Notes under the pieces: generated by a model
Database searches by the model: none
What the model saw: only the letters and a program-made list of their open reading frames with translations
Told to the model about the DNA's origin: nothing
Program-made: the position numbers and the translations under genes
In this document: piece by piece, positions 3,779 through 57,575 of the stretch
Layout: the number at the start of each line of letters is the position of its first letter
How positions within the stretch are numbered: position 1 is the stretch's first letter
Assembly: GCA_001819605.1 (NCBI GenBank)
Contig: MHNE01000008.1
Coordinates: 13,054 to 77,053, forward strand
DNA length: 64,000 bases
Direction of reading: 5' to 3'
Source: Candidatus Portnoybacteria bacterium RIFCSPLOWO2_01_FULL_43_11
GTDB taxonomy: Bacteria; Patescibacteriota; Minisyncoccia; Portnoybacterales; UBA2143

Positions 3779-4553
3779 AAACTCCTTTTACTATTCTTAT
3801 AAACTCGCTCGCATTAAGAGAGGCTCCTCCCACCAATAGCCCGTTCATTCCGGCTTTTTTAATGTAATCAGAGCTATTTTTGGCCGTCACGCTTCCGCCG
3901 TAAAGAATTTTTATTTCTTCGGCCAGCCGGCGGCTGTAGAGTTTGCTTAAAATTTTTTTAATAAATAATCTGGCCTGCATTGCCTCGTCAGAAGAACAGG
4001 AAACCCCGTTATTGGAACTAATGGCCCAAACCGGTTCATAAACAATAATTACATCGTTTATTCGATTGGAAGAAATACCCGCGACAGCTTTCTCTAATTG
4101 CTCTTGAACAATTAAATTCATTTCATTGAGCTGTTTCCCCTCTGAATCAAAAGTATCCTTCGTCTCTTCGCCAAGGCAAAAAATCGGCTTAAGCCGCGCT
4201 TTTAGAGCCGCTTTAATTTTTTTATTAATTATTTCGTCTGTTTCGCCGAAATATCTGCGTCTTTCAGAATGGCCGACAATAACGTACTGACAGCCTAAAT
4301 CTTTTAACATCAAAGGGGAAACTTCGCCGGTAAAAGCGCCTTTCTGCTCCCAGTGGCAATCTTGAGCGCCTAAAATAAAATTTAAAGTCTTAAGATTAAA
4401 ACCCGATAAATAAATATACGGCGGGCAAATAACGACTTCAATATCTTTTGTCAGTTTAATTCCGCCATTGATAACTTTTAAAAGATGCTCCGCTTCTTTT
4501 CTGGTAAGGGGATTGCACTTCCAATTGGCGATGATTAGTGTTTTTTTGTCCAT
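3756..4553 (-). CDS. tpiA: triosephosphate isomerase
   Basis: IANWKCN, GHSERR and YGGS signature motifs. Confidence 0.9.
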   Translation of the reverse strand: MDKKTLIIANWKCNPLTRKEAEHLLKVINGGIKLTKDIEVVICPPYIYLSGFNLKTLNFILGAQDCHWEQKGAFTGEVSPLMLKDLGCQYVIVGHSERRRYFGETDEIINKKIKAALKARLKPIFCLGEETKDTFDSEGKQLNEMNLIVQEQLEKAVAGISSNRINDVIIVYEPVWAISSNNGVSCSSDEAMQARLFIKKILSKLYSRRLAEEIKILYGGSVTAKNSSDYIKKAGMNGLLVGGASLNASEFIRIVKGVYEISPRF

Positions 4554-5016: not shown

Positions 5017-5038
5017 AAGTGGATTAGTAATGAGTAAT

Positions 5039-6031
5039 TTATTGTTTTTTCAAAAACTCCGCTGCCTTTTCCGGCTCAATGGTAGAAATCTCTATGCCGG
5101 TGCCTAATTCAAATCCGGCCCAAACCGCGGTCTTTGGCAGAATAATCAAATGCCAATGATAATGCTTATAACTTCCGCTGTCTAAGGGCGCCGTGTGAAA
5201 ATAAAAATTATAAGCCGGATCGTTAAGCCCCTGATAAATCTTGTTTAAAGCGACACGGAAAGCGTCGGTAAAAAAATCTTTTTCTTCTTCGCTCATTTTT
5301 TCAAAATAAGCCGAGTGCTCTTTGGGATAAATTCTGACTTCAAAAGAAACTTGGGAAGCAAAAGGGCAAAGAACAATAAATTTATCGTTTTCATAAACAA
5401 CGCGCTGTCCGTCTTTTATGTCCCAATCAATCATCGCGCAGTAAACGCATTTTCTATTTTTTTGATAATACATCTCCGCCCCTTCTAAACTCCCCCTTAA
5501 ATCCGGATCCATAACCGGAATCGCGATCAATTGAGAGTGCGGATGAGCCACTGTGGCGCCCGCTTCTTTTTTATGATTATGAAAAATAGAAATGTATTTT
5601 ATGAATTTTTCCTTCATCAAGTCTAAATACCTTGACTGGTAAGCGTCAATTACTTCCCTAATTTCTTCTTTGGAAAATTGAGCCATTTGTTTTTTATGAT
5701 CGCGAGTAACAATCACCTCGTGGAAACCAAGGCCGTTCATCGCTTTATTGGGGCCCTCTGTCCGTTCATTAGGCTCTTCTCCTTTAGAAAAAGCCGGATA
5801 TTTGTTGTCCACGACCAATAAACTCCATGAACCGTCCGGTTTATCGTGTCTTAATTTTATTCCTTGTTCTTCTAAAATTTTAGTTTGGCAAAAAGGACAA
5901 TCTTTTTCCAGAATCATCTCTTTGGCTCTTTTATGTTTGGCAAAAGTCTCGGGTCTTTTACCCCGACCGGTGGCAATGACCACCCAGTCATTGGAAACTA
6001 AATCTAAACGTAGTTCTGACGCGGAATTCAT
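5039..6031 (-). CDS. galT: galactose-1-phosphate uridylyltransferase-like (HIT superfamily GalT branch)
   Basis: CPFC zinc motif near the N-terminus and the AHPHSQ active-site motif; 330 aa. Confidence 0.6.
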   Translation of the reverse strand: MNSASELRLDLVSNDWVVIATGRGKRPETFAKHKRAKEMILEKDCPFCQTKILEEQGIKLRHDKPDGSWSLLVVDNKYPAFSKGEEPNERTEGPNKAMNGLGFHEVIVTRDHKKQMAQFSKEEIREVIDAYQSRYLDLMKEKFIKYISIFHNHKKEAGATVAHPHSQLIAIPVMDPDLRGSLEGAEMYYQKNRKCVYCAMIDWDIKDGQRVVYENDKFIVLCPFASQVSFEVRIYPKEHSAYFEKMSEEEKDFFTDAFRVALNKIYQGLNDPAYNFYFHTAPLDSGSYKHYHWHLIILPKTAVWAGFELGTGIEISTIEPEKAAEFLKKQ

Positions 6032-6052: not shown

Positions 6053-6796
6053 TTAAATTTTCAATTGATACTTATCCGTAATTAAATTCCATTTAATTTT
6101 AAAAAGCTCGGCAAATGTTTTAAGATACCCCTTCCAATTGACACGGCTGTTTGGATTATTAACCCAATAAACGGGAATAATCGCTATTTTATAACCCAAG
6201 CGTCTGGCCAAAGCCAGTGCTTCAATGTCAAAACCCCAGCGGTCAATCAGGCACTTGGAAAAAATATTTTGGGCCGCTTCGGCTGAAAAAACTTTGAAGC
6301 CGCATTGAGTATCCCAGATGCCCGGCACAGCCACCAGCTGAATTAAAAGATTCGCGGAATTACCCAATTGTCTTTTTAAAAATGATTGAGACACGGCCTG
6401 TTTGGCTCCGGCCGCGTCTTTTCTGTCCCTTGAGCCGATAACCACTTCAAAGCCCTCTTTTAAAAAGGGCCATATTTTTTCCAAATGTTCCACGCTGGTA
6501 GCATTATCCGCGTCCATAAAAAGACGGTATTGGCCTTTGGCCTCAAGCATCCCCCTTCTCACCACATAACCCTTGCCGCGATTGGACTGGTTGTCAATCA
6601 GCCGTAAATTCTTAATTAAATTTTTAAAATTTTCAACTATCTTACCTGTTTTATCTTTTGAGCCGTCGTTCACCACCAAAATTTCATAGGAATAATTTTG
6701 TTTGGAAAGATAATTATCAACAGCCAGCAATGTGTTGCTGATAGACTTTTCTTCGTTGTAAGCCGGAATAATGACTGACAAATGAATTTTGTCCAT
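6053..6796 (-). CDS. family 2 glycosyltransferase (dolichol-phosphate mannosyltransferase-like)
   Basis: VIIPAYNEE...VVNDGSKD...D.D GT2 signature; likely start MDKIHLSV. Confidence 0.8.
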   Translation of the reverse strand: MDKIHLSVIIPAYNEEKSISNTLLAVDNYLSKQNYSYEILVVNDGSKDKTGKIVENFKNLIKNLRLIDNQSNRGKGYVVRRGMLEAKGQYRLFMDADNATSVEHLEKIWPFLKEGFEVVIGSRDRKDAAGAKQAVSQSFLKRQLGNSANLLIQLVAVPGIWDTQCGFKVFSAEAAQNIFSKCLIDRWGFDIEALALARRLGYKIAIIPVYWVNNPNSRVNWKGYLKTFAELFKIKWNLITDKYQLKI

Positions 6797-6875
6797 AGGA
6801 ATTATTTTAGTATAACACACTTCTCCTAATCAGCAAAATCTTGAAAATTATTTGTAGTTCTGTTAGTCTCTAATT

Positions 6876-7011
6876 AATAAGGAGGATGACTTTTGGAAAC
6901 GTGAAAAATCCCCAGCGAGGATTTTTCACTCAAGCTTCCGCTCGCTCTTTCTGCTTCGCAGAAAACCGTGCCCGCTCGCTCCAGATTGTTCCAAAAGTCA
7001 TCCTCCTTATT
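6876..7011. repeat. 136-bp GC-rich element bounded by a perfect 23-bp inverted repeat (AATAAGGAGGATGACTTTTGGAA / TTCCAAAAGTCATCCTCCTTATT) with nested internal hairpins
   Basis: Read directly from the sequence. Inner inverted repeat GTGAAAAATCC/GGATTTTTCAC, a repeated CCGCTCGCTC, and a TCTGC-ttc-GCAGA palindrome. Confidence 0.6.
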
Positions 7012-7022
7012 TAATTATTTTA

Positions 7023-8123
7023 ATGTCCAAATATCATATTATAACCTACGGATGCCAAATGAATAAATCAGACAGCGAACGGATTGCGGCTCAACTGGAA
7101 AAACAAGGCCATCAAGCGGCTCAAAAATTAGCCGAGGCGGATTTAATCGTACTCAATGCTTGTTCAGTCCGCCAATCAGCCATTGACCGGCTTTACGCCA
7201 AAATCAATCAACTCAAAACTAAAAACTCAAAACTAAAAACTATCCTGACTGGTTGTCTGCTTAAAAAAGATAGAGAAAAATTAAAAAACCAGGTTAATGA
7301 ACTCTGGCCTTTCTGCGATTTCTCCATTAAGCCGAAATATCAATCATTAAAAACAGCTTATATGCCGATTATGACCGGTTGTAATAATTTTTGCAGTTAT
7401 TGCGCTGTCCCTTATACGCGCGGCCCGGAACGCTCAAGACCGGCTAAAGAAATTATCAAAGAAGTGAAAGATTTAGTTAAAAACGGCTGTAAAGAAATTA
7501 TTTTACTGGGGCAGAATGTGAATAGTTATAATAACGTCATTCTGAGCGAAGCGAAGAATCTCGCGGCAAATAGTAAATCCACGGGATCCTTCGCTAAAGC
7601 TCAAGATGACAAATTGAAAGGGGTTAGTTTTCCCGGCTTACTCCGGATACTCAACAATATCCCGGGTGATTTCCAACTTAAATTTCTTACTTCTCACCCA
7701 AAAGATATGTCCGATGAATTGATTGAAACAATAAGCCAAAGTAAAAAAATAGCTAAAGAAATCCATCTGCCGATTCAGTCCGGCGATAATCAAATTCTTA
7801 AAAAAATGAACCGGGGCTATACGGTCAGCCATTACAAAAATCTCATAAAAAAAATCCGCCGAAAAATTCCGGAGGTTAAAATTTCAACTGACATCATTGT
7901 CGGCTTTCCCACAGAAACAAAAAAACAATTCCAAAATACGGCTCAACTGATAAAATGGGCTAAATTTGACAGCGCTTACATTGCCCGTTACTCTCCCAGG
8001 CCCGGCACTGCCGCGGCAAAACTAAAAGATAATGTGTCTAACGATGAAAAGAAAAGAAGATGGAAAATTTTACAAGACTTTTTAGACAAAAATAAAAATG
8101 GAGTAGCGAAGCGAACGAAGTGA
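7023..8123 (+). CDS. miaB: radical-SAM methylthiotransferase, MiaB/RimO family (no TRAM domain)
   Basis: N-terminal MTTase domain with the YGCQMN cysteine motif and a radical-SAM CxxxCxxC (CSYCAVPYTRG). Sits directly upstream of miaA. Confidence 0.8.
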   Translation: MSKYHIITYGCQMNKSDSERIAAQLEKQGHQAAQKLAEADLIVLNACSVRQSAIDRLYAKINQLKTKNSKLKTILTGCLLKKDREKLKNQVNELWPFCDFSIKPKYQSLKTAYMPIMTGCNNFCSYCAVPYTRGPERSRPAKEIIKEVKDLVKNGCKEIILLGQNVNSYNNVILSEAKNLAANSKSTGSFAKAQDDKLKGVSFPGLLRILNNIPGDFQLKFLTSHPKDMSDELIETISQSKKIAKEIHLPIQSGDNQILKKMNRGYTVSHYKNLIKKIRRKIPEVKISTDIIVGFPTETKKQFQNTAQLIKWAKFDSAYIARYSPRPGTAAAKLKDNVSNDEKKRRWKILQDFLDKNKNGVAKRTK

Positions 8124-8161
8124 GCTTCGCGATTATCGCGGAGCTTCGCTCCGCTACTCCA
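8101..8161. repeat. GC-rich palindromic repeat element (GGAGTAGCGAAGCGAA...GCTTCGCTCCGCTACTCC) overlapping the miaB stop; homologous copy at 45871-45931
   Basis: Both copies share end motifs GGAGTAGCG[A/G]AGCGAAG and GCTTCGCTACTCC. Confidence 0.65.
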
Positions 8162-8224
8162 GATAATAAAAAAGCGGGCCTTTATAGCCCCAAAAAGAAA
8201 AAAGGAACTGTAGAGAGTTTAGCG

Positions 8225-8520
8225 ATTATGGATGTCTATTAGGACATCCGGCTTTTCGCTACAGTTCCTGTTATTGAAATCGCAGAGGAGGCCGCTGGGC
8301 CTAGTGGATGGTGGTAAGCCGGGCGGAGGGGCCCGTACGGCCACTCTGCGATTTCGTTTTTTTTCGGCGGAGACTGCGCTTAATTATTATAGGTTAACCT
8401 GCGCTTTTCGGATAACCTACACTCAGCACAGGCCGCAGTCCCCCTCTCAAAGAACTAGGTGCCTAACTATTGCCATTATATCCATTCAAAAAACTATGTC
8501 AAGACCCTCCTCTTTTATTT
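8225..8520 (+). ncRNA. GC-rich highly structured intergenic segment (candidate ncRNA or structured repeat); identity unresolved
   Basis: Long hairpin AAATCGCAGAGG...GGCCG...GGGCC...GGCCC...CGGCC...CTCTGCGATTT followed by a T-run. Additional hairpins GGATGTCtattaGGACATCC and GGAGCattaactGCTCC. About 60% GC in an AT-rich genome, with no credible ORF. Confidence 0.35.
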
Positions 8521-8598
8521 GAATAAAATTATAAATAAAAAAAGAGGAGCATTAACTGCTCCATAAATAATTGGAATCACAGAGGAAAGAAAAAATTT

Positions 8599-9510
8599 AT
8601 GTCAAGTGGAAAACCATTTTTAATTGTTATCTTAGGACCAACCGCTTCCGGTAAATCAGCTCTGGCCATTAAATTAGCTGGCCGATTTAATGGTGAAATT
8701 ATTTCTGCGGACTCAAGACAAATTTATAAAGAAATGGATATTGGAACCGCTAAATCATTAGGGTCCGACCCTCGCGAGGGTCAGACCCTAAACTTAATTG
8801 ATATAGTCAGGCCTGATCAAGAATTTACTCTGGCTCAATATAAAAAATTAGCTATTAAAACTATCAATGATATTCACAAGCGAGGTAAATTGCCTTTTTT
8901 GGTCGGCGGCACCGGGTTATACATCTGGGCTGTTGTTGACAATCTAAAAATCCCTAAAGTTAAACCCCAGCCGGAATTAAGGGAAAAAATAGAAAAAGAA
9001 ATAAAACAAAAAGGACTAAAAAAAGTATATCAAAAACTCTTAAAATTAGACCCGGGAGCAAAACATTTTATAGAGCCGGATAATCCGCGAAGAATCATCA
9101 GAGCATTAGAGGTTTGTCTTATTACAAAAAAGCCGTTTTCCAAACAAAGAAAAAAAGGCCGAGCTCTTTTTAATGTATTGCAAATCGGCCTTAAGCCGGC
9201 CAAAAATATTTTTGATAAAAAAATAGACCGGCGAGTGGATAAAATGATCCATGCCGGTCTTATAGACGAAGTAAAAAATTTAGCCAAAAAATATAGTTTT
9301 AATCTGCCTTCAATGAGCGGCATTGGCTATCAAGAAATCGGCCGGTATTTAAGAAATGAAATTGACTTAGAAAAAGCAAAAGAACTAATAAGGCTTCATA
9401 CCCGTCAATACGCCAAGCGCCAGATAAGCTGGTTTAAGCGCGACAAAAGAATCCACTGGATAAAGAATTATCAAGAAGCGGAAAAAATAATAAAAGAATT
9501 TTTAGGATAA
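8599..9510 (+). CDS. miaA: tRNA dimethylallyltransferase
   Basis: P-loop GPTASGKS and DSRQIYKEMDIGTAK motifs. Confidence 0.9.
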   Translation: MSSGKPFLIVILGPTASGKSALAIKLAGRFNGEIISADSRQIYKEMDIGTAKSLGSDPREGQTLNLIDIVRPDQEFTLAQYKKLAIKTINDIHKRGKLPFLVGGTGLYIWAVVDNLKIPKVKPQPELREKIEKEIKQKGLKKVYQKLLKLDPGAKHFIEPDNPRRIIRALEVCLITKKPFSKQRKKGRALFNVLQIGLKPAKNIFDKKIDRRVDKMIHAGLIDEVKNLAKKYSFNLPSMSGIGYQEIGRYLRNEIDLEKAKELIRLHTRQYAKRQISWFKRDKRIHWIKNYQEAEKIIKEFLG

Positions 9511-10959
9511 AAAATCTTTTAAAATTTTACTCACAATTTGCGGATTAGCCTTGCCTTTACTTTCCCGCATTACTTGGCCGACCAAGAATTGTAAAGCGTT
9601 TTCTTTGCCCGCTCTATAATCTTTTACTGATTGTTCATTGTTTTTTATAACTTGTTCAACTATTTTTGTCAATTCATCCTCACTGCTCACCTGTTTAAGC
9701 CCTTTATCTTCAATAATATGAGTCGGGTCAGCGCCGGTTAAAAACATTTCTTTTAAAACAAGCTGGCCAGCGGAGCTGGAGATCTCTCCTTTTTCAATCA
9801 AAACAATAAATTCAGAAAAATTCTCGGCTGTAATTTTTTCCGGCAAACTATAATCAATAATTTTTAAAACGTCGGCAATCCGGGGAATTTCAGTTAATAA
9901 ATAATTAGCGGTTAATTTATATAATTTTTGAAGAGAAAGTTTTTCCTTAGCTTCCTCTGTCTGATTAAATTCAGAGCAAACCCCCTCAAAATAATCGGCT
10001 GATTTTTTTTGATTAACTAAAATCTCAATGTCTTTTTCCGGCAGTTGATATTCCTTTTTAAATCTTTCCCGGCGAGCTTGCGGCAACTCCAAAATAAGAT
10101 TTAAGATTTTAGATTTAAGATTAAAGATTTTGAGCGGCGGCAAGTCCGGCTCCGGAAAATAACGGTAATCTTCCGCTTCTTCTTTAGTTCTTTGAGAAAA
10201 AGTTTTTTGCTTATTATCGTCCCAGCCGCGGGTTTCCTGAATTATTTTCTCGCCGGATTCCAATAAATCCGCTTGTCTTTTGATTTCGTATTCTATGGCC
10301 CGCTCCACTGACCTAAATGAATTAAGGTTTTTAACTTCTACTTTCGTGCCGAGTTTTTTACCCGAGTCCTTAAGCGATATATTCGCTTCCACTCGCATCT
10401 GCCCCTTTTCCATATCAGCGTCAGAAACCCCTAAATATCGTAAAATCAACTGAAGTTCTTGGCTAAATTGCCGCGCTTCTTGAGCCGTTGTAATATCCGG
10501 TTCCGTTACCAATTCCATTAAAGGCACGCCGGCCCGATTAAAATCAACCAAGGAATAATCAGCGCCTTTTGAGTGGATTAATTTTCCGGTGTCTTCTTCT
10601 AAATGAATCCGCGTAATCTTGATTTTTCGGCCGTTTATTTCTAAAAAACCATTCACTGATAATGGCTTATCGTATTGAGAAATTTGATAGCCCTTGGGCA
10701 AATCCGGATAAAAATAATTTTTGCGGTCAAACTTGGAGAATTCCGGAATTTCGCAATTTAGAGCCAAAGCGGTTTTTAAAACATATTCAACTGCTTTTTG
10801 GTTAATAACGGGCAAACTTCCGGGCTGACCAGTACAAATCGGGCAAATATAAATATTCGGCTCTTGAGCCGTTGGGTTATTCGGGCAATCGCAAAACATT
10901 TTGCTCTCTGTTTTTAATTCCGCGTGAATCTCAAGACCGATAGTTGGCTGATATTTCAT
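9502..10959 (-). CDS. gatB: Asp-tRNA(Asn)/Glu-tRNA(Gln) amidotransferase subunit B
   Basis: MKYQPTIGLEIHAEL N-terminus and a GatB/YqeY C-terminus; the ORF start is trimmed to the conserved M. Confidence 0.9.
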   Translation of the reverse strand: MKYQPTIGLEIHAELKTESKMFCDCPNNPTAQEPNIYICPICTGQPGSLPVINQKAVEYVLKTALALNCEIPEFSKFDRKNYFYPDLPKGYQISQYDKPLSVNGFLEINGRKIKITRIHLEEDTGKLIHSKGADYSLVDFNRAGVPLMELVTEPDITTAQEARQFSQELQLILRYLGVSDADMEKGQMRVEANISLKDSGKKLGTKVEVKNLNSFRSVERAIEYEIKRQADLLESGEKIIQETRGWDDNKQKTFSQRTKEEAEDYRYFPEPDLPPLKIFNLKSKILNLILELPQARRERFKKEYQLPEKDIEILVNQKKSADYFEGVCSEFNQTEEAKEKLSLQKLYKLTANYLLTEIPRIADVLKIIDYSLPEKITAENFSEFIVLIEKGEISSSAGQLVLKEMFLTGADPTHIIEDKGLKQVSSEDELTKIVEQVIKNNEQSVKDYRAGKENALQFLVGQVMRESKGKANPQIVSKILKDFLS

Positions 10960-20299: not shown

Positions 20300-22351
20300 T
20301 TATTTTCTTACTTCCCATCCCCCTTCATTTTCCAAAACCGAAACAATCTTATTATGAATTTTCTCAATTTCTTCATTAGTCAAGGTATGGTCATCGGCCT
20401 GATAAATAATGTGAAAAGCCAAATTCTTTTTAGCTTCTCCAATTTCTTCTCCCTCATAAATATCAAATAAATCCACATCCTGAACCAATGCTCCGCCGGC
20501 TGTTTCAATTAAATTTAAAACTTCTTCTACTTTGGCAGCCGGCTCAACAAGGATCGCGATATCCCTTACAACCGCCGGGTATTTTGAAGGCGGCAAATAT
20601 TCCCTTTCTTCCGTGGCTAATTTCACTAATTTCTCAAAATCTATTTCAAAACCGGCTGCTCGCGATTCAATGCCCAGTCCTTTTAGAACTTCCGGATTTA
20701 TTTCTCCCAGCCAGCCGAGCGAATCTTCGCCGACTTTTATTTCAGCCCTTCTTCCCTGATGAAATAAATCTAAAATTCGGAATCTGGAATCTGAAATCTG
20801 ATCGCTATACCAAATATCGCTAATCCGCAACTTATTTAAAAGAGAATCAACTACCCCTTTTAAACTGTAAAACTCTTGGGCCTCTTTTGGTTTATTTTTC
20901 AAAGCGAAAATTCCGGCCGCTCTTTTTATCTCTTCTTTTTCAAATACTTTTCCTATCTCAAATAATTTTATTTCGTTAAAAAACCTCGAATTGTCCTTAA
21001 CATTCTTTAATAAATTTAATATTAAATTTGGCCGTAAATATCTTTGTTCCTGACTGACCGGATTTTCTACTTCAATTAAATCTGAAATTTGCTCGCCCAT
21101 TACCTGTTTTTCACTGATAAACGAATAATTGTAGACCTCACTAAAGCCAACGCCGATTAAAATTTCTCTTATCCTGTTTTCGTAAAACAAAGATTCATTT
21201 CGCTCCGGCAATATTAAAACAGCAGTTGGTAATTGGGCCGGAATTTTTTCATAGCCGTAAACGCGGCCAATTTCTTCAATCAAATCTTCGGGAAGAGTTA
21301 TATCCATTCGCCGGGTAGGTATTGTAATGCGTAATGCGTAATTTGTAACGCGTAACTCAAAACCCAATTCTTCTAAAATATTTTTAATCTCTTTTATTGA
21401 AACATCAATTCCTAATAATCTTTTAGCTTTTTCTATTTCAAGTTTTATTGTTTTTGGCTTTATTTTCTTTGGATAAATATCAATCATTCCTTGAATAACT
21501 TTTCCTCCTCCTATTTCTTGAATTAAACCAGCCAGCCGATCAATGGCTTCTGACGCCAAATTAGGGTCAAAGCCCTGTTCAAAACGGATTGAGGATTCTG
21601 TGCGCAGTCCCAGTTTCTTTGAAGTTTGCCGGATATTTATCGGAGAAAAATTAGCCGACTCTAAAATAATATTTTTCGTGTTCTGGCTGATCTCCGCTTT
21701 TTTCCCTCCTTTAATGCCGGCAATGGCCAAAGGTTCCCGTATATCACTAATAACTAAAATATCCTGATCAAGCTCGTATTTTTCATTTTCTAAAGTAGTA
21801 ATTTGTTCTCCTTTCTTCGCCCTTCGAACAACAATTCCCTTTTCAACTTTATCAAAATCAAAAGCGTGCAGCGGCTGACCAGTTTCAAACATTACGTAAT
21901 TTGTCGCGTCAACTATATTATTAATAGACTTCTGCCCGATTGCTTCAAGCCGCTCTTTTAACCACTTAGGCGAAGGAGCGACTTTGATGTCAGTTATCAC
22001 CCGGGCGCAGTAACGCGGACATAAATTTTTATCCTGAACCTTTACTTCTAAAAAATCTTTTATCTTTTGCGATTTATCTTCTTTTAACGGAGTCCTGCCT
22101 TTAGGCAGAGAATTGTCTCGCCCTAAAGGGCGGTCTCCAATTATCACTGCTATTTCTCTGGCAACTCCAATATGGCTCAAACAATCATGCGTCCGATTAG
22201 GCAAGACATCAATATCCAAAATCCAGTCGCTGCCTTTTTTCTCCGTTCTTTCCACCTCAAAACTATGCATTGTTAAAACTTCAACCAGTTTTTCTGGAGT
22301 AGGAAGCTTTCCTATAAAAAAAGATTGTAGCCAGTTATAACTTACCTTCAT
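20300..22351 (-). CDS. pheT: phenylalanine--tRNA ligase beta subunit
   Basis: 683 aa with B3/B4, B5 and FDX-ACB domains (IYPK, FHIIYQADD). Confidence 0.9.
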   Translation of the reverse strand: MKVSYNWLQSFFIGKLPTPEKLVEVLTMHSFEVERTEKKGSDWILDIDVLPNRTHDCLSHIGVAREIAVIIGDRPLGRDNSLPKGRTPLKEDKSQKIKDFLEVKVQDKNLCPRYCARVITDIKVAPSPKWLKERLEAIGQKSINNIVDATNYVMFETGQPLHAFDFDKVEKGIVVRRAKKGEQITTLENEKYELDQDILVISDIREPLAIAGIKGGKKAEISQNTKNIILESANFSPINIRQTSKKLGLRTESSIRFEQGFDPNLASEAIDRLAGLIQEIGGGKVIQGMIDIYPKKIKPKTIKLEIEKAKRLLGIDVSIKEIKNILEELGFELRVTNYALRITIPTRRMDITLPEDLIEEIGRVYGYEKIPAQLPTAVLILPERNESLFYENRIREILIGVGFSEVYNYSFISEKQVMGEQISDLIEVENPVSQEQRYLRPNLILNLLKNVKDNSRFFNEIKLFEIGKVFEKEEIKRAAGIFALKNKPKEAQEFYSLKGVVDSLLNKLRISDIWYSDQISDSRFRILDLFHQGRRAEIKVGEDSLGWLGEINPEVLKGLGIESRAAGFEIDFEKLVKLATEEREYLPPSKYPAVVRDIAILVEPAAKVEEVLNLIETAGGALVQDVDLFDIYEGEEIGEAKKNLAFHIIYQADDHTLTNEEIEKIHNKIVSVLENEGGWEVRK

Positions 22352-45183: not shown

Positions 45184-45432
45184 ATGAACAATTTTCTCTT
45201 AAAAATCATCGGTCTCAAAGAGACCCTTTTTGACGGAAGGGCGGTTTCGGTTAATCTTCCCTCTTCCGAGGGCGAACTGACTATTTTAAAAGACCATTTG
45301 CCTTTAATTACCGCCCTAAAAAGAGGTAAAATTAAAGTTAGAGACGAAAACAATCAGGAACATCTTTTTGAAATTCAAAGAGGTTTTTTAGAAGTTAACC
45401 CGAATAAAGTGACCATTTTAAAACATGAATAA
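45184..45432 (+). CDS. atpC: ATP synthase F1 epsilon subunit
   Basis: 82 aa beta-sandwich N-domain (L.I..P...F.G.V..V..P...GE..IL.H); position in the operon. Confidence 0.75.
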   Translation: MNNFLLKIIGLKETLFDGRAVSVNLPSSEGELTILKDHLPLITALKRGKIKVRDENNQEHLFEIQRGFLEVNPNKVTILKHE

Positions 45433-45877
45433 CCACTCCCATAAATTGCCACAGGCCATAGTTCTTTCCTGCATTGATTTTCGTTTTCACGAAAAATTAA
45501 AGCGGGCGCTAAAAAAGGAAAAAATAAATTCTTATGACCTAATATGCTTGGCCGGCGGAGCGAAAAATCTGGTGAGTCCGAATAAAAAAATTTATCAACA
45601 GATTGTCATTGATAACATTAAGCTGGCTCAAAAACTTCACAAAATAAAAACGGTTGTTTTGTGTAATCACATAGACTGCGGCGCTTACTTGCCCGCCGAC
45701 TTGTCCGCCAAAGCTTCAGCGTCGGCGGAAGTATTGGCGCAGACGGGCGGCGGCAGCAGTCAATTCAAAAATCAAAACGAAGAAACAAAGTTCCATCAAG
45801 CTGAACTAAAAAAAGCGGGGAATTTATTAAAAAAATTGTTTCCTGCTTTAAGAATAAAAGTTATCTTGCTGGAGTAG
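45425..45877 (+). CDS. beta-class carbonic-anhydrase-like protein
   Basis: CIDFR and HIDCGA resemble the beta-CA CxDxR / HxxCG zinc-ligand motifs; overlaps the atpC stop. Confidence 0.45.
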   Translation: MNNHSHKLPQAIVLSCIDFRFHEKLKRALKKEKINSYDLICLAGGAKNLVSPNKKIYQQIVIDNIKLAQKLHKIKTVVLCNHIDCGAYLPADLSAKASASAEVLAQTGGGSSQFKNQNEETKFHQAELKKAGNLLKKLFPALRIKVILLE

Positions 45878-45931
45878 CGGAGCGAAGCTCCGCATCTATT
45901 GCGAAGCTCGCTTTGCTCGCTTCGCTACTCC
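45871..45931. repeat. second copy of the GC-rich palindromic repeat (GGAGTAGCGGAGCGAAGCTCCGC...GCTTCGCTACTCC) overlapping a gene stop
   Basis: Shares both termini and internal GAGCTTCGC/GCGAAGCTC blocks with 8101-8161. Confidence 0.65.
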
Positions 45932-45943
45932 AAAATAGAAACA

Positions 45944-45976
45944 GGGCGCTTCGGTTTTGCTGAAGCGCCCTTTTGT
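45944..45976 (+). terminator. rho-independent terminator of the atp operon (GGGCGCTTC-ggttttgct-GAAGCGCCC + TTTTGT)
   Basis: 9-bp GC-rich stem followed by a T-run. Confidence 0.65.
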
Positions 45977-47014: not shown

Positions 47015-47160
47015 AGGAAATATGTCTTTTGACGACATAGAATTTCGAACAGGCATGGTTCCGAGCTCCGCCAGTTGGCGGAGCGAGGAGAGCGAGAAAT
47101 TATAACGAGCAAAATCCCTCGCTGTGGAATTTTGCGCAGCTGAAAAGTATATCGTCCCGC
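47015..47160. repeat. GC-rich structured spacer between map and adk, related to the GAGCTCCGC/GCGGAGCGA repeat family
   Basis: Hairpins TATGTC..GACATA, CTCCGCC-agtt-GGCGGAG and GCGAGG...CCTCGC; k-mers shared with 8101-8161 and 45871-45931. Confidence 0.5.
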
Positions 47161-47847: not shown

Positions 47848-47885
47848 TAGATTAAATCTTATAACTTAGACGTAAGAAATCCGAG

Positions 47886-48017
47886 CGTTGTTTACACTAC
47901 CGTCTGTCATTCCCGCGAAAGCGGGAATCCAGTATGCTTATTTTGGCTCTGATGCTTATACTATTTGGTGCCCGCCTTCGCGGGCATGACAGGTCTATAA
48001 CAAAAGTGTAAACAACG
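47886..48017. repeat. ~132-bp imperfect palindromic element between adk and secY, with 13-bp terminal inverted repeats CGTTGTTTACACT/AGTGTAAACAACG and internal GC hairpins
   Basis: Left arm CTGTCATTCCCGC-GAAA-GCGGGAAT is roughly the reverse complement of right arm TGCCCGC-CTTC-GCGGGCATGACAG. Confidence 0.6.
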
Positions 48018-48032
48018 CGTTAAATTCCTACG

Positions 48033-56473: not shown

Positions 56474-56920
56474 TTATCTTGGCATTATTTCAATCTTTTC
56501 CCCTTTTGCCAAAGTCACAATAGCTTTTTTAAAACCCTTTTTTGATCCCCCTTTCCATCCTTCTGTCCGGCCCAATCTCCGCCTTTTCGGCACAATACGG
56601 ACTATATTTACTTTCTCTACCTTGACTCCGTAAAGACTCTCAACGGCTTTTTGAACTTCGGTTTTATTGGCTCTTGGATAAACTTTAAAAATATATTTGT
56701 TGTTTTCCGCCAAAGCCGCGGCTTTTTCGGTAATGTGGGGCGCTTTAAGAATGCGATAAACATCAGTCTTTGGTTTCCCGATAATTTTTTTTGACTCTAT
56801 TGATTTAGGCTTCTCGTTTGATTTTTCCTCCACTCTTTGAGCTCCTGATTTCTTTGGGTTTTTTTTAAGTTTGCTTAATAAAGACATATTTAGAAATTTA
56901 TTTAAGATATGTTTTCTCAA
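56474..56920 (-). CDS. rplW: 50S ribosomal protein L23 with an N-terminal K-rich extension
   Basis: L23 core (I..P.ITEK....E.N.Y.F.V...A.K.E.K.A.E..Y.VKV..VN). Confidence 0.8.
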   Translation of the reverse strand: MRKHILNKFLNMSLLSKLKKNPKKSGAQRVEEKSNEKPKSIESKKIIGKPKTDVYRILKAPHITEKAAALAENNKYIFKVYPRANKTEVQKAVESLYGVKVEKVNIVRIVPKRRRLGRTEGWKGGSKKGFKKAIVTLAKGEKIEIMPR

Positions 56921-57575
56921 TCACTCCCACCGCCTCCTGCGGCATCAAAAGATATTTAAACGATAAAATATCTACCACATTCAAACTATCAGCTCTGATT
57001 ATTTTTATTTTAGGAATATTTCTCGCGGCTCGAATAATTTTTACATTAGAGGCCGGTAAAACAATTAAAACGCCTGGAGTCCTGCCTTTAGGCAGAGACT
57101 CTTTGTCTTTATTTCTGACTGAAGCTAAGACTCTAAATATATTTCTAAGGATTTCAAACATCTTTTTTGTTTTAGCTTCAACTAATTCCAATTTATCCAA
57201 TAAAACAAACTCTTGATCTCTAACTTTTGACGACAAAGCCATGAAAAGGGCTTTTCTTTTCATTTTTTTATTGATTTTTTTAGAAAATACCCGCTCTTTG
57301 GTCGGCCCAAAAGTTACGCCTCCGCCTTTCCAAATTGGCGAGCGGATTGAACCGTGTCTGGCCCGACCCGTGCCTTTTTGCCGCCACGGCTTTTTCCCGC
57401 CGCCCCTGACTTCGCTTCTGTCTTTAGTATGAGCCAAAACCTGCCTTTTATTTGCCATTTGCGTCACGACGGCCTGATGCACTAAATCATTATTCATTTT
57501 CACGTCAAAAATTTCAGAGGGGAGCTCTGCTTTTCCGATTTCTTTGCCTTGCTGATTGTAAATATTGACAAGCAT
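56898..57575 (-). CDS. rplD: 50S ribosomal protein L4
   Basis: 225 aa; KPWRQKGTGRAR and FGP.PR motifs. Confidence 0.9.
   Translation of the reverse strand: MLVNIYNQQGKEIGKAELPSEIFDVKMNNDLVHQAVVTQMANKRQVLAHTKDRSEVRGGGKKPWRQKGTGRARHGSIRSPIWKGGGVTFGPTKERVFSKKINKKMKRKALFMALSSKVRDQEFVLLDKLELVEAKTKKMFEILRNIFRVLASVRNKDKESLPKGRTPGVLIVLPASNVKIIRAARNIPKIKIIRADSLNVVDILSFKYLLMPQEAVGVIEKTYLK

Follow-up and report, generated by a model that had tools for sequence, protein, structure and literature searches.

Two GTAG-REP doublets in a Candidatus Portnoybacteria genome, probably REPIN-type elements of a RAYT-associated family

To our knowledge, work on repetitive extragenic palindromic (REP) sequences, the hairpin-forming REP doublets called REPINs and the REP-associated tyrosine transposases (RAYTs) has been confined almost entirely to Proteobacteria and to a few further groups in culture. 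The GTAG-tagged REPs are defined by a stem of 5-13 bp, a loop of 2-20 nt, an unpaired GTAG at one end and tens to thousands of copies per genome (Di Nocera 2013, PMC3733652). They form head-to-head heterodimers with unequal loops, lie mostly outside genes, 3' of open reading frames (ORFs) or between convergent ORFs, and can provide the TAG of their tag as a stop codon (PMC3733652); Bertels and Rainey named such doublets REPINs (PMC3116915, PMC3337134). Here, we analyzed a 64-kb stretch of contig MHNE01000008.1 (called the window) from Candidatus Portnoybacteria bacterium RIFCSPLOWO2_01_FULL_43_11, a bacterium of the candidate phyla radiation (CPR), in which two related 64-nt elements are found at the 3' ends of miaB and of a Pro_CA_2-family ORF. 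We interpret them as head-to-head heterodimers of GTAG-REPs, i.e. as non-autonomous, REPIN-type elements of a RAYT-associated family (called F1), and assign this reading a probability of roughly 0.8. The kind of repeat is well known. Our literature searches gave no paper joining REPs or RAYTs with CPR bacteria or Patescibacteria, in line with a first-pass annotation of the window, which had called such a repeat family undescribed in CPR genomes.

Anatomy and extent of the two copies

Copy 1 reads TGGAGTAGCGAAGCGAACGAAGTGAGCTTCGCGATTATCGCGGAGCTTCGCTCCGCTACTCCAG in full and copy 2 is its reverse-complement relative (Table 1). The two agree at 56 of 64 bases (88%; blastn E = 1.9e-13 inside the window), and a repeat finder returned them as the longest inverted pair of the window (64 nt, 88%). 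In their alignment, one end has 16 invariant bases and the other 25, and beyond the ends the similarity stops abruptly. The first-pass annotation was right in recognizing two related copies (given there as 8101-8161 and 45871-45931); a correction to it is that they are reverse complements and not direct repeats. The elements are the GC-rich outliers that it had estimated (55-60% against ~38%), with a measured GC content of 57.8% vs 39.3% for the window. Compared with shuffled controls, the two copies are predicted to fold strongly both as RNA (-40.1 and -38.4 kcal/mol, z = -7.2 and -5.8) and as DNA (-24.1 and -23.3 kcal/mol, z = -6.6 and -5.5).

Each copy consists of two units, A and B, which are arranged head to head with their GTAG tags pointing outward and a 9-nt spacer between the stems. 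All four units in the window have an unpaired GTAG tag, a perfect 6-bp stem and a loop of 3 or 11 nt; written as strings, the units of the family are GTAGCGGAGCGAAGCTCCGC and GTAGCGAAGC...GCTTCG. Since units A and B differ by a compensated stem pair (G:C vs A:T), each unit forms a perfect hairpin of its own and the long hairpin spanning the doublet contains an A·C mismatch. The form of a REPIN is therefore present: two inverted REPs, a short spacer and one long hairpin.

The readable DNA of the host genome amounts to 78 kb, namely the 64-kb window and extensions of 9.1 kb and 5 kb. No third copy, full or partial, was detected in the 64 kb (blastn-short; nhmmer with filters off) or in the 14 kb of extensions. 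The first-pass annotation had listed 6900-6985 and 47060-47130 as related regions. Within them, nhmmer --max scored 47078-47095 at E = 99 and gave nothing in 6900-6985, and by blastn neither region resembled the other, the element or any fetched locus, so that there are two copies and not four. The region 47060-47130 is enclosed by a 60-codon ORF with 4-nt overlaps of its ends with adk and map. Between a divergent glycosyltransferase gene and miaB, the sequence 6876-7011 is a 136-nt hairpin whose 23-bp arms (AATAAGGAGGATGACTTTTGGAA / TTCCAAAAGTCATCCTCCTTATT) are perfect; it is unique among the DNA compared.

The MiaB protein of the window is identical to proteins (OGZ35588.1, OGZ37156.1, OGZ37695.1 and OGZ38802.1) in four Candidatus Portnoybacteria metagenome-assembled genomes (MAGs) from the Rifle aquifer, and the window DNA is also present in GCA_001821675.1 (contig MHNC01000049), so that the CPR host is confirmed. 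This contig departs from the window at two spots only, 4093-4158 (6 bases vs 64 here) and 9416-9533 (34 vs 116 here), which are probably scaffold gaps; miaA, as called by NCBI, is interrupted by the one at 9416-9533.

Three further identities of the copies were considered and rejected. A template/variable repeat pair of a diversity-generating retroelement is contradicted by copy differences that are not adenine-specific and by the 37.7 kb between the copies, integron attC sites by the lack of R'/R'' core sites, and inverted repeats bounding an invertible 37.7-kb segment by locus L128, which is collinear with the window across copy 2.

Position at convergent gene ends

Both copies are located at ORF 3' ends in convergent junctions, which matches the mostly extragenic placement of GTAG-REPs. 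As the first-pass annotation had observed, each overlaps the stop codon of the upstream gene and encodes its last codons. The miaB ORF (7023-8123) terminates with a TGA (8121-8123) in the unit B loop of copy 1, and the last seven MiaB codons (GVAKRTK) are encoded by this copy; orthologues end with ...ILESRL and ...KNQKEKV. The Pro_CA_2-family ORF (45425-45877) receives its final codons LE and its stop codon TAG (45875-45877, the tag of GGAGTAGCG) from copy 2. Elsewhere in MiaB, residues ~160-195 (7500-7620) form an extra segment, NNVILSEAKNLAANSKSTGSFAKAQDDKLKGVSF, in place of which the orthologues with 76% and 70% identity carry a different stretch that is shorter.

The suggestion of the first-pass annotation that the copies are probably terminators did not hold. 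Neither is directly followed by a T-tract, the + strand sequence at this place being AGATAATAAAAAAG for copy 1 and AAAATAGAAAC for copy 2, and a terminator scan flagged other hairpins but neither copy; terminator-like hairpins lie 10-15 nt downstream. The hairpin next to copy 2 is separate from it, which places copy 2 in the 3' untranslated region (UTR) and not as the terminator itself, and the - strand site next to copy 1 (read 8190->8176) shows that copy 1, too, is located at a convergent 3'-3' junction. The hairpins of the copies are presumably transcribed within the 3' UTR, where they could affect mRNA stability.

Downstream of copy 1, the - strand of the spacer 8163-8598 bears a perfect promoter (TTGACA-16-TATAAT, 8502->8475, 12/12, sigma-70-like) besides the terminator-like site 8190->8176, and the spacer also contains long hairpins at 8205-8270 and 8270-8350, the latter followed by T8. 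Judged from the sequence, this content suggests a candidate - strand RNA of ~290 nt (about 8468 to 8170), to which the terminator-like site would belong and which has no Rfam match. A search of the whole window against Rfam gave nothing at the gathering threshold, and in 6700-8700 nothing at E <= 5 except chance miRNA-like hairpins (22.8 bits vs a gathering score of 82).

Table 1. Positions of the F1 doublets, their units and the neighboring terminator-like hairpins in the window.
Feature	Position	Strand	Details
F1 REP doublet, copy 1	8099-8162	+	TGGAGTAGCG...CGCTACTCCAG; covers the last 25 nt of miaB
Copy 1, unit B	8103-8129	+	GTAG 8103-8106; CGAAGC 8107-8112; 11-nt loop GAACGAAGTGA 8113-8123; GCTTCG 8124-8129
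Copy 1, unit A (inverted)	8139-8157	-	GTAG 8157-8154; arm CGGAGC, loop GAA, arm GCTCCG
Terminator-like hairpin with T-run	8176-8190	-	14 nt from copy 1
F1 REP doublet, copy 2	45869-45932	-	opposite to copy 1; amid convergent Pro_CA_2 (+) and 64-aa ORF (-)
Copy 2, unit A	45874-45892	+	GTAG 45874-45877; CGGAGC-GAA-GCTCCG
Copy 2, unit B	45902-45928	-	GTAG, CGAAGC, loop GAGCAAAGCGA, GCTTCG
Terminator-like hairpin	45943-45971		13 bp, then TTTTGTG; 11 nt downstream of copy 2

Relatives in other genomes and their RAYT neighbors

When 185,579 species genomes were scanned with a two-ended pattern, 76 loci in many phyla were returned, about 8 of which are expected by chance (our own estimate, from pattern length and collection size). 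The inner sequence of F1 occurs in only a subset of these loci, and the GAGTAGCG tag context is common to several families. In JGI metagenomes, the unit A 20-mer matched at least 120 stretches, and both scans together gave at least 60 full-length doublets, at least 53 of them distinct. Among the loci recovered, those closest to the window are one in an Omnitrophota-labeled MAG (L088, 90% over 71 nt), one in another Portnoybacteria (L072), two in unclassified MAGs (L070 and L081) and a further Omnitrophota-labeled one (L066). Seven loci were aligned directly to the window; in each, the element is the sole similarity and the flanks are not homologous.

Across loci, the doublets keep their termini and vary in the spacer and in the B loop (3 to >40 nt). 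The unit stems, scored with 6-nt arms, are compensatory variants of each other: among the matches listed, CGGAGC/GCTCCG was counted 182 times, CGAAGC/GCTTCG 109 times and CAGAGC/GCTCTG 4 times. Several contigs carry 2-6 copies each, and unit singlets as well as tail-to-tail dimers were also found. Viral contigs of the IMG/VR collection gave 0 matches to the specific 20-mer, so the family is not phage-borne in this collection; a 15-mer gave 34 single chance matches there, and the three that were inspected (3/3) are not elements.

This spread across genomes bears on the idea that the two copies arose independently, as intrinsic terminators or regulatory RNA hairpins, and became alike by convergence and not by common descent. 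Their position at gene 3' ends and their very stable hairpins would fit such an origin. However, the 88% identity spans 64 nt, loop and spacer bases included, and has sharp boundaries, an Omnitrophota MAG carries an element 90% identical without flanking homology, and both a T-tract and an Rfam match are absent. The cross-genome family refutes convergence, and we give it next to no credence.

Only slightly less improbable is a classical MITE (miniature inverted-repeat transposable element), i.e. a deletion derivative of a DDE insertion sequence with terminal inverted repeats that is mobilized in trans and generates target-site duplications. The element is indeed short and dispersed, and its ends, TGGAGTAGCG / CGCTACTCCA, are 10-bp inverted repeats. 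Yet the GTAG tags of two REP units make up these termini, units also exist as singlets and tail-to-tail dimers, and all transposase genes found adjoining units are of the Y1/RAYT type. The first-pass annotation had described the copies as MITE-like with possible TA/TTA duplications, but none of 35 distinct insertions showed a target-site duplication. The T (28/35) and the A (23/35) next to the element are complementary rather than direct and only prolong the palindrome. The MITE, terminator and Rfam readings thus each fail a defining test.

The reading of the copies as GTAG-REP doublets is carried further by the genes next to their relatives. In L066, an F1 doublet is located 40 nt from the 3' end of a truncated ORF matching NF047646 (REP_Tyr_transpos, E = 9e-14), the NCBIfam model of REP-associated tyrosine transposases, which has a curated cutoff of 80 bits. 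Full-length homologues of this ORF exceed the cutoff (P0001 with 100.7 bits and the L232 RAYT with 102.7 bits); these homologues are 174 aa long, belong to PF01797 and contain the motifs HUH (NHYH) and YIHNN. In L122 and L232, the RAYT gene is bordered on both sides by arrays of exact A and B units, and the 23-mer GGAGTAGCGGAGCGAAGCTCCGC of copy 1 unit A is identical to the REP flanking the L122 RAYT. RAYT genes flanked by the same REP units, as expected of a REPIN system, are therefore found in other genomes (L066, L122 and L232), and the dispersed, possibly mobile REP-like hairpin family proposed in the first-pass annotation proved to be a GTAG-REP heterodimer whose units flank RAYT genes elsewhere. 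The F1-flanked RAYTs belong to Omnitrophota-labeled MAGs and one unlabeled contig. Dense arrays of F1 units and doublets surround the RAYT gene in L232 (800-1850) and L234 (540-1690) and are followed by a PIN/PhoH gene; the RAYT-PhoH synteny also occurs in L066, L122 and L123 (Omnitrophota-labeled).

REP stems change with their RAYT. A RAYT with 41% identity (L231) is flanked by GGAGTAGCAG-type units, showing that the GGAGTAGC tag context is kept at this distance and the stem is altered, and RAYTs with 47% mutual identity have clearly different REP stems. CPR MAGs do contain RAYTs above the NF047646 cutoff, namely P0070 (Patescibacteria, 102.2 bits) and P0112 (Buchananbacteria, 95 bits), each flanked by REP-like units of its own. 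Against the IS200 model, P0070 and P0112 score 24-26 bits vs a cutoff of 55, and the F1-linked RAYTs give no match.

How the doublets would have come to their sites can be outlined by analogy with REP/RAYT systems described in the literature on E. coli and Pseudomonas. The REP units would be single-stranded DNA hairpin substrates of a RAYT (HUH/Y1), which would bind the hairpin and cut at the GTAG tag, and the doublet would be copied or moved in trans without target duplication. In this genome, too, a RAYT presumably placed the copies. Two old copies, given their mutual divergence of 12%, would have settled at convergent gene ends between stop codon and terminator, each insertion bringing a new stop codon and altering only the last residues, 7 in MiaB and 2 (LE) in Pro_CA_2.

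Site turnover, host range and comparison with described systems

At the syntenic locus of a distant relative (L251, MiaB 70% identical), the element is absent and miaB and miaA are separated by 33 nt, vs 475 nt here. In another Portnoybacteria genome (L247, MHNB01000022, MiaB 76% identical), the exact miaB 3' site is occupied by a doublet of a different family, F2 (TGGAGTCCCGGCTTTAGCCG...CTGCCTAAAGGCAGGAATCCAG, 5030-5083), with conservation of the flank downstream; a single site has thus been used by two REP families in sister lineages. F2 units consist of GGAGTCC, a 4-bp stem and a TTTA loop; they flank a Buchananbacteria RAYT (L245) and occur in the window as well. Two proteins that looked like empty-site alleles (P0122, 354 aa; P0244, 143 aa) were rejected as such, because they reflect alternative start-codon calls and their C-termini are unchanged.

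Within the window, an F2 doublet (GGAGTCCTGCCTTTAGGCAGAGA...TCTCGCCCTAAAGGGCGGTCTCC, 22089-22138) lies in the pheT ORF (20300-22351, -), which reads through it in frame at residues ~71-88, within the linker that precedes the B3_4 domain. An F2 unit standing alone (GGAGTCCTGCCTTTAGGCAGAGA, 57076-57099) lies in the ORF of ribosomal protein L4 (rplD; 56898-57575, -) and shares 23 identical nt with the pheT unit. A third doublet (CTGTCATTCCCGCGAAAGCGGGAATCCAG ... CTGTCATGCCCGCGAAGGCGGGCACC, 47904-47992), which is REP-like by form only, is nested in a palindrome with 28-nt arms (47871-48032) between adk and secY, and its unit recurs in the unrelated metagenome contigs L207 and L133.

Several observations weigh against the interpretation of the copies as REPIN-type elements of a RAYT-associated family. 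Two copies in 78 kb with 12% divergence are unlike an actively replicating REPIN population; for judging a population, this sample is small. No RAYT was detected in the 78 kb of host DNA (hmmsearch best E = 1.2), none labeled Portnoybacteria and similar to P0001 was present among the 120 listed of 1350 RAYT matches, and the RAYTs bordered by exact F1 REPs reside on Omnitrophota-labeled or unlabeled contigs, not on CPR contigs. The RAYT contigs of the F1 family are, however, very short (726-1825 bp), so that a Portnoybacteria RAYT could be unassembled or unbinned. The empty site of L251 comes from a distant relative, which makes the exact insertion point a presumed one. Finally, copy 2 is retained in every lineage contig fetched (L002-L011 and L128) and in L146 (aligned stretches 82-95% identical), and hence no presence/absence polymorphism was seen within the lineage.

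Some of these observations would suit relic, immobile hairpins that are kept for a host function, the 3'-UTR stem-loop shielding the miaB and Pro_CA_2 mRNAs from 3' exonucleases or insulating convergent transcription. The elements would have arrived long ago and the RAYT would no longer be present in the streamlined genome. Besides the low copy number, the divergence and the missing RAYT, the location of both copies between stop codon and terminator at convergent junctions agrees with such a function, as does the retention of copy 2 where aligned stretches drop to 82-91%: in L146 it keeps 62/64 bases vs 39/45 in the adjoining spacer. This comparison with the flanks is weakly informative in L146 and uninformative in L003 and L128, which are locally ~100% identical. 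On the other hand, the two substitutions in L146 are uncompensated and break a stem pair, L251 does without the hairpin, and the survey covered 78 kb of perhaps ~1 Mb. We regard relic status as possible, with the odds against it; this reading is about whether the elements are active now and does not conflict with an origin from REPs.

The likeness between phyla is close: the Portnoybacteria window and an Omnitrophota-labeled MAG share 23 identical nt at unit A and 90% identity across the doublet as a whole. As RAYTs that are 47% identical already have different stems, a shared F1 REP would mean transfer, or persistence or mobilization in trans. It may reflect that a REPIN-RAYT system recently passed between phyla of ultra-small bacteria in groundwater, or that REPINs persist or are mobilized in trans in a ~1-Mb genome without a RAYT of its own; we hold this proposal tentatively and consider it unlikely on present evidence. 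REPIN-RAYT systems are described as long-term residents, mostly inherited vertically according to one study (10.1101/2022.05.22.493013), and the near-identity between Portnoybacteria and Omnitrophota hints at horizontal spread of such a system. The sharing of one REP sequence by these two groups is the point of possible wider interest.

At least two REP families in a ~1-Mb CPR genome with 39% GC indicate that streamlining does not exclude such repeats, and the idea that REPs are still dynamic in streamlined CPR genomes would gain support from the turnover at the miaB 3' site together with the in-frame REPs in pheT and rplD. The hairpins rewrite ORF ends, as in the last 7 residues of MiaB, and give rise to small ORFs that are spurious. 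Metagenomic assemblies are probably broken by them as well, the RAYT contigs in the F1 family being only 0.7-1.8 kb long, and they could serve as strain markers.

Among described systems, the Rickettsia palindromic elements and intragenic REPs (PMC3733652) resemble the F2 family in having palindromic units in frame in essential genes (pheT, rplD), whereas the F1 copies are not intragenic and merely overlap ORF ends. The subterminal hairpins of IS200/IS605 elements are likewise single-stranded DNA hairpins for a Y1 HUH transposase and are used without target duplication; here, however, the linked proteins pass the RAYT model and fail the IS200 cutoff, tnpB is lacking and the gene itself is not repeated. 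The REPs and bacterial interspersed mosaic elements (BIMEs) of E. coli with their TnpA-REP (Nunvar 2010, PMC2817692; Messing 2012, PMC3479197) share the GTAG 5' of an imperfect palindrome, an HUH/Y1 gene flanked by its own REPs and the occurrence of both head-to-head and tail-to-tail dimers, but F1 differs from them by shorter, 6-bp stems, by a RAYT clade of 174 aa with the motifs NHYH ... WE ... YIHNNC and by its presence in other phyla.

The closest match are the GTAG-REPs and REPINs (PMC3116915, PMC3733652). Common to both are inverted stem-loops with outer GTAG tags and a short spacer that can form a single long hairpin, heterodimer units with loops of unequal length and one differing stem pair, RAYT genes flanked by identical units, sites after ORFs or between convergent ORFs with a TAG stop provided by the tag, and insertion without target-site duplication. 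In contrast to those systems, the host is a CPR bacterium, two diverged copies and no near-identical population were seen and the cognate RAYT was not located in the 78 kb read, and the tag context GGAGTAGCG and a GCGAAGC-type mini-hairpin core are specific to the F1 family.

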